From: a virus
UHGV virus genome: UHGV-0364842
Length of the DNA: 28,424 nt
Strand: one strand, 5' to 3'
Shown: piece by piece, positions 3,060 to 8,617 of the stretch
How the letters are laid out: each line of letters opens with the position of its first letter
Position numbering within the stretch: position 1 is the first letter of the stretch
Translations under genes and position numbers: made by a program
The notes under the pieces: model-generated
What the model saw: the letters and a program-made list of their open reading frames with translations, nothing else
Database searches by the model: none
Told to the model about the DNA's origin: nothing

Positions 3060-3404
3060 ATGTCAGATTTGGCTATGAAAGTTTTGAAATGGCAATCGAC
3101 TGGCGATGTCGGCATCAGTAGCGCAACTCTTGCCTCAATCGCATGTGGACTGAAAAAGAATATCTATGGTCATCACTTTGGAGCTCCCCATGACGCAGCC
3201 GATTTCCGACGATGCGTTGCACTTGTTGAGCAGATCCCAGAAATCAGAGATTCATTCGACAAGGTTGCAAAGCGCGTTCCGGCATTCAAAGGCATCCTCA
3301 ACGAATGGGATTCCCTCGTTGCTCTGTTGAAATCTGAAATGAAGATACACGGAAACAAAGCACCAGAGACTTACAGAAGAATTAGCGAGTTACGCAAGGA
3401 CTAA
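3060..3404 (+). CDS. hypothetical phage protein
   Basis: 114-aa ORF with a GGAGA RBS; no recognisable domain. Confidence 0.45.
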   Translation: MSDLAMKVLKWQSTGDVGISSATLASIACGLKKNIYGHHFGAPHDAADFRRCVALVEQIPEIRDSFDKVAKRVPAFKGILNEWDSLVALLKSEMKIHGNKAPETYRRISELRKD

Positions 3405-3462
3405 CCACAGCCTCACACTCGATGAGGTCTGTTCATTGCTCAATGATATCCAGACTTACCAT

Positions 3463-3488
3463 CGCCGCATCAATGCGGTTTTTTATTG
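3463..3488 (+). terminator. candidate rho-independent terminator (short stem)
   Basis: CCGCA-tcaa-TGCGG hairpin followed by TTTTTTATT; lies between the accessory genes and xis. Confidence 0.35.
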
Positions 3489-3529
3489 CCTGATTTGCAG
3501 GTTCGATTCCCTATTCGGAGATAGCACTC

Positions 3530-3730
3530 ATGCAACACGAACTACAGCCTGATTCACTGGTTGATTTGAAATTCATCATGGCCGATACTGGCTTCGGTAA
3601 AACCTTCATCTACGACCGGATTAAGTCCGGCGACCTGCCAAAAGCCAAAGTTATCCACGGGCGAGCAAGATGGTTATATCGTGACCATTGTGAATTCAAA
3701 AATAAGCTCTTAAGCCGCGCCAATGGGTAA
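3530..3730 (+). CDS. xis: AlpA-family excisionase / DNA-binding regulator
   Basis: 66 aa; FIMADTGFGKTFIYDRIKSGDLPKAKVIHGRARWLYRD resembles AlpA/Xis-type helix-turn-helix proteins; immediately upstream of the integrase. Confidence 0.7.
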   Translation: MQHELQPDSLVDLKFIMADTGFGKTFIYDRIKSGDLPKAKVIHGRARWLYRDHCEFKNKLLSRANG

Positions 3731-3979
3731 AATAGCGGGTAAAATATTTCTCACATCTAAAAAATACCATTCCAATCAATCCCCTGCTGTCTCAAGTAGA
3801 TGTCTGCAGGGGACACCATTTATCAGTTCGCTCCCATCCGTACCAGTCCGCAAAATCCCCTGAATATCAAGCCTTCCGTAGATTCACGGTTCGTCATGGT
3901 TCGCGTCAGATCGTTGACAGCCGCACACCATGACGGGTAAAAAGTGGATAAAATAATTTTACCCACCGGATTTTTACCC
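3722..3979. other. candidate attP / integrase arm-site region (GGGTAAAA direct and inverted repeats)
   Basis: GGGTAAAAT at 3725-3733 and 3737-3745, GGGTAAAAA at 3935-3943, inverted TTTTACCC at 3957-3964 and 3972-3979; an 8-bp inverted repeat TCCCCTGC...GCAGGGGA lies between them. Confidence 0.3.
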
Positions 3980-5125
3980 ATGCTCACCGTTAAGCAGATT
4001 GAAGCAGCAAAGCCGAAAGAAAAACCATACCGCCTACTCGATGGTAATGGCCTGTACCTTTATGTCCCTGTGTCAGGGAAAAAGGTATGGCAGCTTCGCT
4101 ACAAGATTGACGGTAAGGAGAAAATCCTGACCGTAGGAAAATATCCGCTAATGACTTTGCAGGAAGCAAGAGATAAAGCATGGACCGCGAGGAAAGACAT
4201 CTCGGTTGGCATCGATCCGGTAAAAGCGAAAAAGGCTTCGTCTAACAACAATTCCTTTAGTGCGATTTACAAGGAATGGTACGAGCACAAGAAGCAAGTC
4301 TGGTCAGTAGGCTATGCAAATGAACTTGCAAAAATGTTTGATGACGACATTTTACCTATCATCGGCGGCCTTGAAATTCAGGATATTGAGCCGATGCAAC
4401 TGCTGGAAGTAATCCGCAGATTTGAAGATCGCGGTGCAATGGAGCGAGCAAATAAAGCCCGCAGAAGATGCGGCGAGGTTTTCCGTTACGCTATTGTCAC
4501 TGGTAGGGCTAAATATAACCCGGCACCTGACCTTGCTGACGCCATGAAGGGATACCGCAAGAAAAACTTCCCGTTTCTTCCTGCAGACCAGATCCCGGCA
4601 TTTAACAAAGCACTGGCAACATTTTCAGGAAGCATCGTATCGCTCATTGCGACCAAGGTTTTACGCTATACAGCCCTCAGAACAAAAGAGCTTCGTTCCA
4701 TGCTATGGAAGAACGTCGATTTTGAAAACAGGATTATCACCATCGACGCCAGTGTGATGAAGGGACGCAAAATTCATGTAGTTCCTATGTCAGACCAGGT
4801 AGTTGAACTTCTCACTACGCTAAGCTCAATCACCAAACCAGTATCAGAGTTTGTTTTTGCCGGGCGCAACGATAAGAAAAAGCCAATCTGCGAGAACGCG
4901 GTGCTACTTGTGATCAAACAAATCGGCTATGAGGGTCTGGAAAGCGGTCACGGATTCAGGCATGAATTCAGCACGATTATGAACGAGCACGAATGGCCTG
5001 CTGATGCTATTGAAGTGCAACTGGCACATGCCAACGGCGGATCTGTGCGCGGGATTTACAACCATGCTCAGTATCTCGATAAGCGCAGAGAAATGATGCA
5101 GTGGTGGGCTGATTGGTTAGGGTAG
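3980..5125 (+). CDS. int: tyrosine integrase, P4/IntA-like
   Basis: N-terminus MLTVKQIEAAKPKEKPYRLLDGNGLYLYV is typical of P4-type integrases; C-terminal catalytic region with the HxxR...Y pattern. An in-frame GTG at 3944 is an alternative start. Confidence 0.9.
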   Translation: MLTVKQIEAAKPKEKPYRLLDGNGLYLYVPVSGKKVWQLRYKIDGKEKILTVGKYPLMTLQEARDKAWTARKDISVGIDPVKAKKASSNNNSFSAIYKEWYEHKKQVWSVGYANELAKMFDDDILPIIGGLEIQDIEPMQLLEVIRRFEDRGAMERANKARRRCGEVFRYAIVTGRAKYNPAPDLADAMKGYRKKNFPFLPADQIPAFNKALATFSGSIVSLIATKVLRYTALRTKELRSMLWKNVDFENRIITIDASVMKGRKIHVVPMSDQVVELLTTLSSITKPVSEFVFAGRNDKKKPICENAVLLVIKQIGYEGLESGHGFRHEFSTIMNEHEWPADAIEVQLAHANGGSVRGIYNHAQYLDKRREMMQWWADWLG

Positions 5126-5214
5126 CCATCCTTGGCATTAACACAGCATTTTTACGCAACAACACGGCACACCACGTTACGCGTCGGCACAGTGCGACAC
5201 GCGGATGTCACAAA

Positions 5215-7593
5215 TTAAACAGTGTATCCAGAAAATACGTATCGCTGAGTAACTGATGCTTCTGCTTGTATCTCAATTCCAGTTGAGCTAACTACGCAGT
5301 TAACTTCAAAAGATGTTGCTGAACCGATATTCATCGCAAACGTTCCGTTATTAACTCCTGTAGTTTTAGTAACTTTCTCTCCTGTTGACTTAGTAAATTC
5401 GATCGTTGTTGCTGTTGAACTTTTTGATATCGTGAATTTTAAATTACGATCACCAGAATCGCCATTATTTATAATAATAAATCTATCTCCAGTAGCGATA
5501 TTAGTAGTGGTTGGTACCCCAACCCTAAATAATACAACTGGAGATGATGAAATTCCATCAAACCCAACACGCATAATACCAACTGAGTTCCATAAGTGAC
5601 CAAAGTCTAACTCTGTACCAGATAGTACATTCCCGGTGCATGTACACATATCTGATAACGTAGGGTTTGATGATGGATTAGTTATCCTGCATCTTGTTTT
5701 TGAATTAAACTTATTATCAGAAATGACAAGATTCATATTAGAATACCCATCATTGTTAGTGGTGTAATCAGTAAATACAGTAAGGTCGCCAAACATACCT
5801 TTGTTATTTGATATATTCAGTGTGCCAGTAAACCCGCCACCACCAGATTGACTACCTGTGTTCATTTGCACCAATCCAACTACTAACGCATCTGGCAGAT
5901 CGAAAATATTGTCCGTAACCGTAATCTGCTGACGCAAGTTGTACGGGTACAAAGAAACACGTACAAAGTTAGTGCTAGTATTAGCAGGTGAAGAGAAGTG
6001 ACAGCCGGATATAACTACGTTAGTTAGAGGTGTGCCATTCGCAACGTAGTTAAGAGTAATTAGCTCGATATCACAGTTATGAATATGCACGAACCTATTA
6101 CCATACACCAACGGACCTACTGTTGGTGATCCTACCCAATCGCGTGTTTCTGCGAACAGGAATGTACCCTTGGAGTTGGCAAGTGTAATGTCCGGGAATA
6201 GCTCCTGCATGACACTGACGTAGTTACGGCGGTAGAACCAGCGCTTGTTAGTGCTACTGTACTGATAGGCCTCTTTGATTTTATGCGGCACCATAAGGCA
6301 GGAGTTCCAGCCAATGCAGTCTTCGATAGTGATATCACTCTCTTGAACAAGGTGCGCTTTATTGTAAATGTCGTACATTTCTAGAGTAGCATTAGATCTG
6401 CATTTAACTCCTTTTTGATATCCTTTGTAATGGCTAAGTGACCAGCAAGACACTAACGCCATTGCTGTATATCCGTTAGAACCATCTGCCCAAAAATCGT
6501 CATCATTATCAATAGAGTAGTCATGTATTGAAACGTTCTTCATAGCATGGCGAATTTGTTTTTCGTAGATATTTTCGTTAACACTACCTATTTGTATAAA
6601 TGTGCCAGCCATATTATGAACTGTGAAATTTGAAATATCTATTGTCTCGTGAGGGAAGTCTCGCGTAAGAAGAATGAAATCGTAAGGACTCTCAGCGTGA
6701 AAATGCGTTAATGAAATGCTATCGCAACCATAGCTTACTTCATCTGGATTTATATTTAATGGGCCGATCGCAGTAAATATTTCAACCCGACCAGTTGTAT
6801 AGAATTTAGATGCTTTTATGGATTTTATTTTTGTTATTGATCCATCAACCACACCAACCAGCCTTGGCCTGATAGATGAAATTTCGCTGCCATGGACAAT
6901 GAAATCTTCACCATAGAAATACCCATTTGTTTTTAAATAAAAGTTATAACCGTTACCTGGGTATATATCCCCACCCCCCCAAATATTAAGGAAAGATACT
7001 GAAATATTCATATCATCAGGAAGATATACGGATTTACCCATTAGATTTAGATTGACACCGCCAAACAAAGACTCCATCTCTTCAAGAGCGGTTTTGTTTA
7101 AAGACGCTGATAGCGGTGCATTATAAACGCCACCAAATGCGGATATGTCACCGTTCATCCATGATAAATACTTATCAAGTGATGCGTTAGATACATTTTC
7201 ACCTGAATGATGAATATATGATGTCCCATTTGGTTCAACCAGTCTTTGAGCCAACTGATCAGGGTCGTATTTCAGCACATTCGGAAAATAGAACTGCTGT
7301 GCACCATACGCATCATAAACAGCCATAGAATGGCCTTGCACGGTAACGAATTTGGCAATCTGTCCGTTATATACCGGATATCCGGCAGCGTTAATGATGA
7401 TTGGTTGCGAAACAGGAACGTGAGAACCGTCTTCGTTCTCCACATAAACCTGAATCTGGTTTTCAGGATTTACCGGGTCAGTGTCAATTTTACCGATATA
7501 AATTTTTCCATTGGCTACGGCTTTAAAAGAACGCGCCATAGTGAAGAGTTGCGAAGGCATGCTTACCACAACATTGGCTGTAATGTCTGTCAT
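5215..7593 (-). CDS. tailspike protein: P22 gp9-like head-binding domain with a divergent receptor-binding domain
   Basis: The first ~115 aa closely match the recalled P22 tailspike N-terminus ([11 protein letters not shown]...VLKYDPDQ); the remaining ~680 aa are unrelated to the P22 endorhamnosidase domain. Confidence 0.9.
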
Positions 7594-7693: not shown

Positions 7694-8617
7694 TCAGTAG
7701 CTATGTACTGAAGGAGGTAATTCTTTATTCTTAAGTCTCATCCATGCGGAAAGATTCGTTGGTCCGTCTGGCTCATTGATATCAACATCTCGTGTGTGAT
7801 TGATTAAAACGTCCCTCGCCATTCCGATAACATACGAGAACTCATGACCGTAGTCGTAGCATCTGCCGGAATAATTCGATTGAATTTGTTTTAGCGCCGG
7901 ATACAGTTCGCGGAATAATGCCTGTGAGCGGTTGGCATAATCCCATAACCATACAAGGCTGTTTGCTTCTTTTGCAGAAAGCTCGTTGGTTTTCTTCTCT
8001 TGTTTGCCAATGAACTCACCTTCAAGCGGAACGCGAGCAGCAAGTGACAGTGCTTCGGTAAACTGCTCCTCACTGATTTCTTTGTACGAACATCCAAAAT
8101 GGGATTTCAGTGACGACCACATGGTGATCATCGCCTTAGCCTGTTTTTCTTTTGGCAGAGACTGACCGCGACTCATGACGAGTTGTTTAATGGCTTCCTG
8201 CTGTTCAGTGGTGATTTTACCCGGCAACGCTTTTTTAGCTTTGCGTGGGTTAACTACATGGCCTTTAGTCCAGTACTCGTATAGCACATCGTCACACTCT
8301 TCTTGATACTGGATTACATTGTCGCGGATTTCAGGGCGGACTTTGTTAGGGCTGATGGTTTGCAACCAGCCATTCAGTTTACGTAAAGCAAGGCAAATCA
8401 TGGTCTGCACACCGCCAACTGAAGGTATTGCGATTTCCACAATACCTTTAGCAAATCTTTGTTTTAACTTTGTAAACTGTGAAGCCCAATCCATACCCAT
8501 TCCCTCAACGATAGGTTTCATTGGGGTGTACGGCTCACCGTTGTGATTGACAACATAAAGCTCTGCGCCGTGGAATGGTACATTGATAGTAGATACTGCT
8601 GTTGCTATACTTTTCAT
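7694..8617 (-). CDS. ant: antirepressor Ant
   Basis: 307 aa; N-terminus [23 protein letters not shown] matches P22-type Ant/BRO-N antirepressors; sits downstream of arc. Confidence 0.8.

Follow-up and report, generated by a model that had tools for sequence, protein, structure and literature searches.

A probable IntS/TorI-type attP with an argW core between xis and int in a P22-like phage genome

The window analysed here is the whole stretch of viral DNA, 28,424 bases in length. To judge from sequence comparison, its segment 3707–4003 is almost certainly the attP of a P22-like (Lederbergvirus) phage equipped with the IntS/TorI argW module of KplE1, HK620, Sf6 and CUS-3. An IntS/TorI argW attP is already known, being annotated in HK620 and dissected in KplE1. 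As the preliminary description had proposed, the site lies between xis and int. The crossover falls at 3804–3819, within the ~190-bp segment bracketed by repeats. The features of the region are as follows.

3530–3730, + strand: xis (torI/hkaC), recombination directionality factor (RDF) of 66 aa, from K-12 TorI identity, PDB 1Z4H and HK620 hkaC
3707–4003, + strand: attP, taken between the ends of the substrates published for in vitro excision (primers attR-IHF2 to attL-SpeI), from primer mapping
3725–3733, + strand: P-arm integrase arm-type site, copy 1, GGGTAAAAT; overlaps the Gly-stop codons of xis, inside an HK620 'attP' repeat_region (maps to 3724–3746)
3737–3745, + strand: P-arm integrase arm-type site, copy 2, GGGTAAAAT; 12 bp from copy 1 (start to start), inside the same HK620 'attP' repeat_region
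3774–3786, + strand: IHF-like match AATCAATCCCCTG, one mismatch to WATCAANNNNTTR; predicted placement
3799–3817, + strand: putative core-type sites and overlap, GATGTC / TGCAGGG / GACACC, an imperfect inverted repeat around a 7-mer
3804–3819, + strand: att core CTGCAGGGGACACCAT, 16 bp, the last 15 nt of argW plus 1 nt; crossover region
3824–3851, + strand: TorI sites I1 CAGTTCGC (3824–3831) and I2 CAGTCCGC (3844–3851), from published chromosome coordinates 2464409–2464436
3887–3914, + strand: TorI sites I3 (3887–3894), I4 (3897–3904) and I5 (3907–3914), from published coordinates 2464472–2464499 and mutagenesis
3914–3943, + strand: promoter PintS, -35 TTGACA (3914–3919), 18-nt spacer, -10 TAAAAA (3938–3943); identical to the mapped KplE1 promoter
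3935–3943, + strand: P' arm-type site (P'1 of the literature), GGGTAAAAA; overlaps the intS -10 box
3946–3954, + strand: P' arm-type site, degenerate direct copy, GGATAAAAT; GAGTAAA or GGGTAAA in relatives
3956–3964, - strand: P' arm-type site, inverted copy, ATTTTACCC on the + strand; inside an HK620 'attP' repeat_region (maps to 3955–3980)
3971–3979, - strand: P' arm-type site, inverted copy, TTTTTACCC on the + strand; abuts the int ATG, from HK620 annotation and relatives
3980–5125, + strand: int (intS), heterobivalent tyrosine integrase of 381 aa, from K-12 IntS identity and Pfam domains

The product of xis is identical to K-12 TorI at all 66 residues and matches the 'Tor inhibition protein' of PDB 1Z4H (E=6.6e-43). 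None of the NCBIfam and Pfam models matched TorI, so its identity rests on the direct comparison and the PDB match. The int product shares 379 of 380 residues with K-12 IntS, and at the nucleotide level int is 96–97% identical to the genes of HK620, Sf6 and IME10. Pfam places a separate N-terminal arm-type DNA-binding domain (PF13356, Arm-DNA-bind_3, residues 2–86, E=2.1e-25) ahead of PF22022 (Phage_int_M) and the catalytic domain PF00589 (Phage_integrase, E=4.8e-39).

The limits of the site follow from the primer sequences in PMC3509656, which map to 3707–3726 and 3980–4003 of the window. Between them, 289 of 297 positions are identical to a composite of the K-12 attR left part, core and attL right part, and the mismatches spare the arm motifs, the core, the -35 and the -10, all of which the window shares with KplE1 (CPS-53) of E. 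coli K-12. The core CTGCAGGGGACACCAT occurs once in the window; nucleotides 61–75 of argW correspond to 3804–3818, which together with 3495–3510 are the longest argW matches in the window. Both the 16-nt KplE1 core sequence and its argW target have been published (PMC2951348). GenBank records label this core 'attP core' in HK620 and Sf6 and 'attL core' in CUS-3. A tRNA gene search over the window returned none, as expected for an attP since the core is only a 15-nt tRNA fragment, and Rfam at a permissive threshold gave only chance-level matches in 3400–4100 (all E>=1).

The preliminary description had advised comparison with integrated relatives and a search of the spacer against tRNA 3' ends, and both located the core. 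The region was matched in 1,901 of 5,426 E. coli genomes, split at 3804–3819, which places the phage/host junction and shared core there in ~1,900 genomes. Among the matches listed, all attL pieces start at 3804 and adjoin tRNA-Arg and intS, and all attR pieces end at 3818–3825 and adjoin torI. The junctions have the layout argW-core-intS (attL) and torI-core-dsdC (attR), and an empty argW-dsdC site (attB) is present in 912 E. coli genomes. The spacer matched the 3' end of argW, tRNA-Arg(CCU), at 3804–3818. Around the crossover, GrTGTm / TGCAGGG / GACAyy is kept in six attPs and partly in attB, with the 7-mer invariant. From this pattern we infer a 7-bp overlap TGCAGGG (3805–3811) with flanking half-sites GATGTC and GACACC; the P and P' sites, in number and name, and the exact core-type and IHF sites are likewise putative.

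According to the proposed mechanism, the N-terminal domain of IntS would recognise the GGGTAAA(A/T) repeats in the P and P' arms, and its core-binding and catalytic domains would act on the 16-bp core. Recombination with the identical argW 3' end would insert the phage and rebuild the tRNA from phage DNA, giving attL (argW-core-P'-intS) and attR (torI-P-core). The predicted lysogen junctions are argW...TTCGATTC/CTGCAGGGGACACCAT/TTATCAG for attL and AGATGT/CTGCAGGGGACACCAT/CCTTGTG for attR. Excision would depend on TorI, bound at five 8-mers of the GTTCG type that lie past the core and ahead of the P' arm, with IHF assisting. Binding of IntS, TorI and IHF to their sites and recombination have been published on KplE1 and HK620 substrates (PMC2951348, PMC3509656), IHF being used in the KplE1 in vitro reaction (PMC2951348). 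By analogy, protein binding, in vitro recombination, transcription start and autoregulation, as published for DNA and proteins of 97–100% identity, may be carried over to the window.

The repeats themselves are where the preliminary description had placed them: GGGTAAAAT twice, GGGTAAAAA once and, as inverted copies, the 8-mer TTTTACCC twice (3957–3964 and 3972–3979). The first copy does overlap the xis stop (TAA at 3728–3730), and the last ends at 3979, directly before the int ATG at 3980–3982. Exact GGGTAAAA occurs six times on both strands of the window against 0.64 expected, a number reached in 0 of 100 shuffles, and five of the six copies are packed into 255 bp (3725–3979). The motif is short and A-rich and has an extra copy at 8215–8222, outside the cluster, which might suggest a chance or low-complexity A/T-rich feature without function. 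We give this reading no credence, given the enrichment and the conservation of copy number, orientation and position across Enterobacterales despite divergence of the flanking sequence. Including the degenerate GGATAAAAT at 3946–3954, which holds the TAAA published as the common element of P' sites, arm-type copies lie on both sides of the core, two in the P arm and four in the P' arm (two direct, two inverted). This sixth, degenerate copy had gone unnoticed in the preliminary description, as had the five GTTCG/GTCCG/GATCG 8-mers at 3824–3914.

Relatives were compared by footprinting across species-representative genomes and GenBank phages; a scan of viral contigs with the integrase returned only copies of 99–100% identity, useless for footprinting. 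The integrases, 58–100% identical, all lie ~160 nt 3' of tRNA-Arg(CCU), in at least 30 loci. At least three copies of a single motif type abut the ATG in 36 of 38 loci, of the GGGTAAA type in 25 and of the GGGCAT type in 11. In g341c and phiEt88, both unintegrated phage genomes, the P arm switches motif in step with the P' arm, GGGCATA taking the place of the 3725–3733 repeat. The phiEt88 integrase has a catalytic part like that of the window (79–84% identity) and an N-terminal domain like that of g341c (69% vs 55–60%), and its motif is GGGCAT. The RDF sites differ between the two phages: GGGCAT arms are combined with GTTC(G/T) sites in g341c and with GT(T/A)ACC sites in phiEt88. These comparisons support the view that the arm motif follows the N-terminal arm-binding domain of the integrase and varies independently of the RDF-site motif.

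The same comparisons bear on whether the GGGTAAAA repeats might be TorI/Xis excisionase sites rather than integrase sites. Such sites would fit the overlap of the first copy with the end of xis, the usual form of RDF sites (direct repeats within one arm) and the divergent RDFs (36–45% identical) that the GGGCAT-type phages also carry. Published mutagenesis on KplE1, however, puts TorI on GTTCG/GATCG/GTCCG 8-mers and IntS on the TAAA-containing sites (PMC2951348). Furthermore, g341c and phiEt88 show that arm and RDF motif classes vary independently, and the phiEt88 arm motif tracks the N-terminal domain of its integrase. We therefore consider an assignment of the repeats to TorI very improbable. 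The sequence evidence supports the assignment of the repeats between xis and int as IntS arm-binding sites; the TAAA-containing repeats of the near-identical KplE1 attL are IntS arm-type sites (PMC2951348). Hence, where the preliminary description had offered integrase arm-type or Xis sites, the first half holds, by the published assignment and the covariation with the N-terminal domain, and the second does not, TorI binding the GTTCG-type 8-mers.

The TorI sites were placed in the window by carrying over their published coordinates via the intS ATG. Their 8-mers are preserved relative to KplE1, save one R-to-R change in I3. The five sites are bound cooperatively, as reported in the study that defined the in vitro attL and attR substrates (PMC3509656), and I4 and I5 mediate the repression of intS by TorI (PMC2951348).

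The P' arm also contains the intS promoter, which in KplE1 is repressed ~5-fold by IntS and ~5-fold by TorI (PMC2951348). The TTGACA/TAAAAA promoter (3914–3943), absent from the preliminary description, has its transcription start at ~3949–3952, and its -35 is kept as TTGAC(A/T) in 38 relatives. A consensus promoter/terminator scan did not recover PintS because the 18-nt spacer and TAAAAA -10 fall under the scanner threshold; the assignment thus rests on published primer extension. Since the promoter is embedded among their sites, both proteins would repress intS, IntS from the repeat that overlaps the -10 box, TorI from I4/I5 beside the -35 box. P'1 overlaps the -10 box in KplE1 too, and single P' site mutations did not relieve repression by IntS (PMC2951348); the autoregulatory copy is therefore assigned from the overlap. 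The suggestion of an int autoregulatory region is borne out in that the -10 box lies inside the 3935–3943 repeat, in agreement with the IntS repression just cited. With the int promoter inside attL and the tRNA upstream in the orientation of int, the arrangement has the 'STI' shape of Panis et al. 2010.

A -10 box inside one copy and repression of the promoter by IntS (PMC2951348) would also be expected if the int-proximal copies served only as an operator for int autoregulation, the two xis-proximal copies being coincidental. This is highly unlikely: in divergent phages the two copies near xis change motif in step with those near int, both sets are included in the minimal attL and attR fragments competent for recombination in vitro (PMC3509656), and HK620 annotates both as attP repeats. 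For heterobivalent integrases such as lambda Int, arm sites flanking the core on both sides are the norm.

The preliminary description had named the 90-bp int-tailspike junction (5126–5214) as an alternative location of attP, which would leave the xis-int spacer merely regulatory. A short non-coding gap does follow int, similarity to other IntS phages stops near it, at ~5116–5124, and the attP of lambda lies just beyond int. However, the gap lacks a tRNA-like segment, and the ~1,900 genomes break at 3804–3819, not in 5126–5214. In the prophages of CUS-3 and K-12 the bacterial junction lies upstream of int, and int is followed by further phage sequence (neuO and tailspike in CUS-3, yfdG/gtr in K-12). 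Moreover, the gene after int varies by phage (oac in Sf6, gtr in g341c, a tailspike here), so that the loss of intS similarity marks a mosaic joint with phage DNA downstream. We reject the alternative as extremely improbable; the window's own int-tailspike joint was sought in E. coli genomes and found in none, so the rejection rests on these other grounds. The xis-int spacer is thus retained as the location of attP. The same joint explains why the last residues of Int differ from those of KplE1 (K-12) IntS.

Several known systems resemble the window to different degrees. KplE1 is a 10-kb defective prophage whose site exists only as attL and attR, whereas the window holds a joined attP in a complete P22-like phage. 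HK620 (AF335538) and Sf6 (AF547987) have the same order xis(hkaC)-attP-int, with identities over 3707–4003 of 288/297 and 290/297, respectively. The attP annotation in HK620 takes in the same core plus the corresponding three repeat blocks; in Sf6 the same core is annotated. Their flanking modules differ from those of the window: the window tailspike is a different protein of 792 aa, and upstream similarity to both phages begins only at 3475. The argW recombination module has been described as conserved in HK620, Sf6 and CUS-3 (PMC2951348).

The comparison with P4-type elements made in the preliminary description is one that the KplE1 authors also draw (PMC2951348). P4 shares the kind of integrase with its N-terminal arm-binding domain, a tRNA 3' end as target, attP upstream of int, an int promoter overlapping Int sites, and repression of int by Int and the RDF, the last two being part of the published parallel (PMC2951348). 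It differs in target tRNA, arm motif and RDF (Vis), the likeness being taken from published description rather than from sequence. Vis reportedly works at the level of the int mRNA, TorI at that of DNA (PMC2951348).

The attP of lambda is laid out as P1/P2 - H1 - X/F - H2 - COC' - H' - P'1-3. Like it, the site in the window is complex and ~250–300 bp long, combines a short core with arm-type repeats on either side, uses IHF and has its direction set by an RDF. It departs from lambda in its position (between xis and int instead of beyond int), in having the RDF sites in P', on the attL side, where lambda has them in P (attR), in an autoregulated int promoter located inside attP, and in targeting a tRNA gene.

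For annotation, the analysis fixes the integration site (argW), the attP limits (3707–4003), the core (3804–3819) and the regulatory logic of int; related records show a small ORF spanning attP, which is probably no gene. The scientific gain is small: few attP/attL/attR systems had already been dissected in vitro, and this module is one of them. The first mapping of these sites is reportedly that of Panis et al. (J Biol Chem 2007, 282:21798), together with Virology 2010, 404:41. The switch from GGGTAAA to GGGCAT provides a confirmation of the published site assignment by natural variation and could guide specificity-swap experiments.

The 8-bp inverted repeat of the preliminary description is present as TCCCCTGC (3780–3787) and GCAGGGGA (3806–3813), 18 nt apart. 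Its right arm falls within the att core and is thus part of the tRNA 3' end, a point missed in the preliminary description. The hairpin folds with z=-2.6, a value expected anyway from an 8-bp GC-rich inverted repeat, which gives an RNA structure no support. The left half, CCCCTGC (3781–3787), lies within the region of the IHF-like match and is kept in six divergent attPs, 18 nt (24 in g341c) to the left of GCAGGGG.

A second conserved element, GTTCGATTCCC (3495–3510), stands in the leader ~20 nt ahead of the xis/torI start and repeats, letter for letter over 16 nt, the T-arm segment of argW directly next to the attB core. No description of GTTCGATTCCC or CCCCTGC was found in PMC2951348, PMC3509656 or the HK620 and Sf6 annotations. 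The retrievable members of the RDF family all adjoin an argW core, and among them the leader motif and the target tRNA are not separable. That the two elements are extra core-type (B-like) IntS sites is a doubtful but conceivable reading; if true, the leader site would let the integrase control the expression of its own RDF. The promoter and regulation of torI were described as uncharacterised in 2010. For the xis leader, folded from the window and from three relatives, z ranged from -1.3 to +0.9, leaving a structure unsupported. Upstream of xis, the promoter/terminator scan found a single item, a terminator-like hairpin at 3464–3479.

The product of xis is identical to TorI, the recombination directionality factor (RDF), at 66 of 66 residues (TorI structure, PDB 1Z4H), and the window integrase matches IntS of the KplE1/CPS-53 prophage at 379 of 380 residues. 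Reading of the sequence from 3300 to 5400 and a repeat search recovered every repeat and palindrome element of the preliminary description, with its first repeat running over the xis stop and its last repeat touching the int start. A sixth degenerate motif copy, five 8-mers and a promoter had been overlooked, and it had gone unnoticed that the palindrome's right arm is part of a tRNA 3' end.

Elements between xis and int (window coordinates)
3530-3730: xis ORF, with its TAA stop within the first arm repeat
3725-3733 and 3737-3745, + strand: arm repeat GGGTAAAAT
3780-3787 / 3806-3813: 8-bp inverted repeat TCCCCTGC / GCAGGGGA
3824-3914: five 8-mers based on GTTCG/GTCCG/GATCG
3824-3831, 3844-3851, 3887-3894, 3897-3904, 3907-3914: TorI sites I1-I5, from published chromosome coordinates transferred via the intS ATG
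3914-3943: promoter TTGACA-N18-TAAAAA
3935-3943, + strand: arm repeat GGGTAAAAA
3946-3954: sixth, degenerate copy of the arm motif, GGATAAAAT
3957-3964 and 3972-3979: inverted arm repeat TTTTACCC
3980: int ATG, immediately 3' of the last arm repeat

The motif GGGTAAAA is present six times in the window (28.4 kb), where 0.64 copies would be expected; five of the six lie inside 255 bp, and a count of six was reached in none of 100 shuffles. Its sole copy outside the att region (8215-8222, minus strand, within a minus-strand 307-aa ORF) fits the chance expectation. Within the int coding sequence, CATTTTACCTA at 4348-4358 differs from the arm motif by one mismatch and corresponds to a fourth 'attP' repeat_region of HK620; it lies beyond the attL fragment that is sufficient in vitro and is probably dispensable.

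In a search of GenBank phages, HK620, Sf6, IME10, N7 and HK633 matched 3475-5116 at 96-97% identity, and the match to the prophage records CUS-3, phiv205-1 and VT2phi_272 began only at 3804. The 'attP core' of the HK620 record maps to 3804-3819, and its attP repeat regions map to 3724-3746, 3934-3955 and 3955-3980, i.e., to the repeats of the preliminary description. The same core is annotated in Sf6, and the CUS-3 record has an 'attL core'. A 501-nt query spanning the spacer gave matches in 1,901 out of 5,426 complete genomes of E. coli, and in almost every case the match was split into two pieces. Among the matches listed, the attL piece starts at 3804, under tRNA-Arg plus intS, and the attR piece ends at 3818-3825, under torI. 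The window reads exactly as a recombinant in which the 16-bp core joins the left arm of K-12 attR to the right arm of attL. The core, CTGCAGGGGACACCAT, comprises the final 15 nt of argW plus one base, and the empty site, in which argW adjoins dsdC, is present in 912 E. coli genomes. Because the core is the argW 3' end, prophages split there and an empty argW-dsdC site exists, attP lies between xis and int. Hence, the proposed placement upstream of int holds, and the suggested comparison of the spacer with host tRNA 3' ends leads to argW. Uninterrupted attP (torI-attP-intS) was found in 17 complete E. coli chromosomes, including that of ET151 (NZ_CP100996.1); this listed example matches in three places, the pattern expected of tandem prophages at argW, and its internal intS is frameshifted.

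The region has been described before, in the HK620 annotation of 2001 and in the KplE1 papers of 2007-2012. In these, argW holds the 16-nt core bordering KplE1, and the KplE1 module is kept in HK620, Sf6 and CUS-3 (Panis et al. 2010, PMC2951348). In KplE1 attL, the TorI sites number five and fall into two blocks, with mutations made at GTTCG, GATCG and GTCCG; the same attL has IntS arm-type P' sites, every one with TAAA (PMC2951348). The published TorI-site spacings, 8+12+8 and 8+2+8+2+8, are matched exactly in the window. P'1 overlaps the intS -10 box (TAaAAa), with a TTGACA -35 upstream; the intS transcription start was mapped by primer extension, and IntS and TorI each repress intS about 5-fold, TorI via I4 and I5 (PMC2951348). 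The int autoregulatory region that had been suggested is thus borne out by the intS promoter (PintS) sequence within the P' arm and by the repression published for KplE1 (PMC2951348). IntS, TorI and IHF support in vitro recombination between a 220-bp attL and a 135-bp attR fragment (Panis et al. 2012, PMC3509656). The primers of these fragments delimit 3707-4003, of which 289 of 297 positions are identical to the K-12 composite; the arm motifs, core, -35 and -10 are all free of differences, and I3 has one purine-to-purine change. By its sequence, the window attP belongs to the KplE1/HK620/Sf6 argW module, with all defining features that can be assessed in this way present.

The repeats had been proposed as either integrase arm-type or Xis binding sites. 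We compared integrase relatives, sampled as one genome per species, and examined the xis-proximal arm in unintegrated phage genomes. Integrases of 58-100% identity are all encoded about 160 nt downstream of tRNA-Arg(CCU), and the layout upstream of int is constant: TTGAC(A/T), two direct and two inverted motif copies, the last abutting the ATG. The int-proximal motif is GGGTAAA/TTTACCC in 25 loci, GGGCAT/ATGCCC in 11 and ambiguous in two. Just past xis, two copies of GGGTAAA spaced 12 bp apart are present in Chronis, Midgardsormr38 and vB_EhrS_49; in g341c and phiEt88, the two copies keep this position and spacing but read GGGCATA. Variation in the pentamers between core and promoter is independent of that in the arm motif: the window group has GTTCG, g341c has GTTC(G/T) and phiEt88 has GT(T/A)ACC. 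From residue 87 to its end, the phiEt88 integrase is 79-84% identical to the window group, but residues 1-86 show just 55-60% identity to that group and 69% to g341c, the phage whose arm motif it shares; phiEt88 is a natural domain swap. In the window integrase, residues 2-86 form the Pfam arm-DNA-binding domain. The switch of motif with the N-terminal domain in phiEt88 argues that the repeats track the arm-binding domain of the integrase, and neither the RDF nor the catalytic domain. Published P' sites and this covariation favour the arm-type reading, whereas the Xis reading fails, TorI acting on the GTTCG-type 8-mers. In the Xenorhabdus hominickii locus, about nine tandem copies of CCCTTAAAT occupy the attL spacer about 90-185 nt 5' of int, with the tRNA side on one flank and the RDF-type sites on the other; the array is an expansion of the element AAATCCC(T/C)T, of which the window has a single copy (3853-3862).

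Alignment of six attP cores and attB gave G(A/G)TGT(C/A), TGCAGGG and GACA(C/A)(C/T) in succession, an imperfect inverted repeat flanking an invariant 7-mer, and 3799-3817 is likely a C-O-C' arrangement. CCCCTGC (3781-3787), the palindrome's left arm, is retained in 6/6 divergent attPs and is complementary to core GCAGGGG, from which it is separated by 18 nt (24 in g341c) of drifting spacer. It overlaps the only good IHF-consensus match on its strand (AATCAATCCCCTG, 3774-3786, one mismatch). As RNA, the palindrome would fold into a hairpin (z=-2.6, a value that a GC-rich 8-bp inverted repeat would produce in any case). Our preferred reading of CCCCTGC is a candidate IHF site.

In the proposed mechanism, IntS would bridge arm sites and core while IHF bends the P arm, and exchange between attP and argW in the shared core would integrate the phage and rebuild argW from phage sequence. 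TorI at I1-I5 on attL would steer excision. IntS and TorI would hold int expression low because PintS is located between I5 and the P' sites; low expression has been tied to a narrow IntS-concentration optimum for excision (PMC2951348). The comparison with P4-type elements in the preliminary description is apt, since in P4, too, attP lies upstream of int and int is repressed by both Int and the RDF (PMC2951348). In contrast to lambda, the window module has a different gene order, RDF sites in the P' arm and an embedded int promoter.

The alternative attP location, the int-tailspike junction at 5126-5214, was rejected: comparison of argW with the window revealed no argW-like stretch in this gap, and in prophages int is followed by phage DNA, namely neuO and tailspike (CUS-3), yfdG (K-12), oac (Sf6) or gtr (g341c). 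About 2,280 E. coli genomes match intS only as far as 5120-5124, and the int-tailspike joint of the window occurs in no E. coli genome searched. The gap is a mosaic module boundary and no att site. The end of int is itself a mosaic joint. Resemblance to all IntS genes ends 2-10 nt before the stop codon (~5116-5124), the window Int has 381 aa vs 385 aa in K-12, and 5075-5201 (int 3' end and gap) resembles Pectobacterium phages phiA41 and A38 (86.6% over 127 nt). The 792-aa tailspike ORF (5215-7593, minus strand), convergent with int, has no close match beside intS in any complete E. coli genome. The whole window is a P22-like mosaic, with Dewey, CurroJimenez_Bas106, Louie and IME10 as nearest phages at only ~50% coverage.

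A 46-aa ORF (3723-3863, + strand) is a homologue of HK620 hkaB, Sf6 gene 17, g341c gene 18 and Midgardsormr38 ORF36. As it begins in the first arm repeat and extends over the core and over I1-I2 of the TorI sites, integration would split it. It has no Pfam match, a ribosome-binding site is not obvious, and the ORF is probably an artefact of annotation passed between records.

About 20 nt before the xis ATG (3530), outside the in vitro att fragments, TTGCAGGTTCGATTCC (3495-3510) repeats argW nt 46-61 without a mismatch over 16 nt; in attB, this T-stem/T-loop segment lies directly 5' of the core. The string GTTCGATTCCC + N4-5 + CGGAGAT(A/G)AAACC-ATG recurs before TorI-family genes only 36-88% identical to TorI. 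The GTTCGATTCCC leader is present in K-12, HK620, Sf6, Midgardsormr38, phiEt88, g341c and many viral contigs, and in two tandem copies in the Erwinia phage Midgardsormr38; in the family comparison it was missing before other TorI-family members. Folding gave no stable RNA structure, and no Rfam family matched. All TorI-family members retrieved target argW, and the torI promoter is described as uncharacterised in the literature. The leader may act as a B-like core half-site for IntS, as an operator for TorI, or in translation initiation as a conserved leader. Just 5' of it lies a terminator-like hairpin with a T-run (GCCGCATCAATGCGGTTTTTTATT, 3464-3486); in HK620 and Sf6, the same T-run follows a hairpin with another stem (GCCGCCTGATGGCGG). 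The similarity boundary with HK620/Sf6 (3475) falls within the hairpin, which places a module joint inside the terminator.
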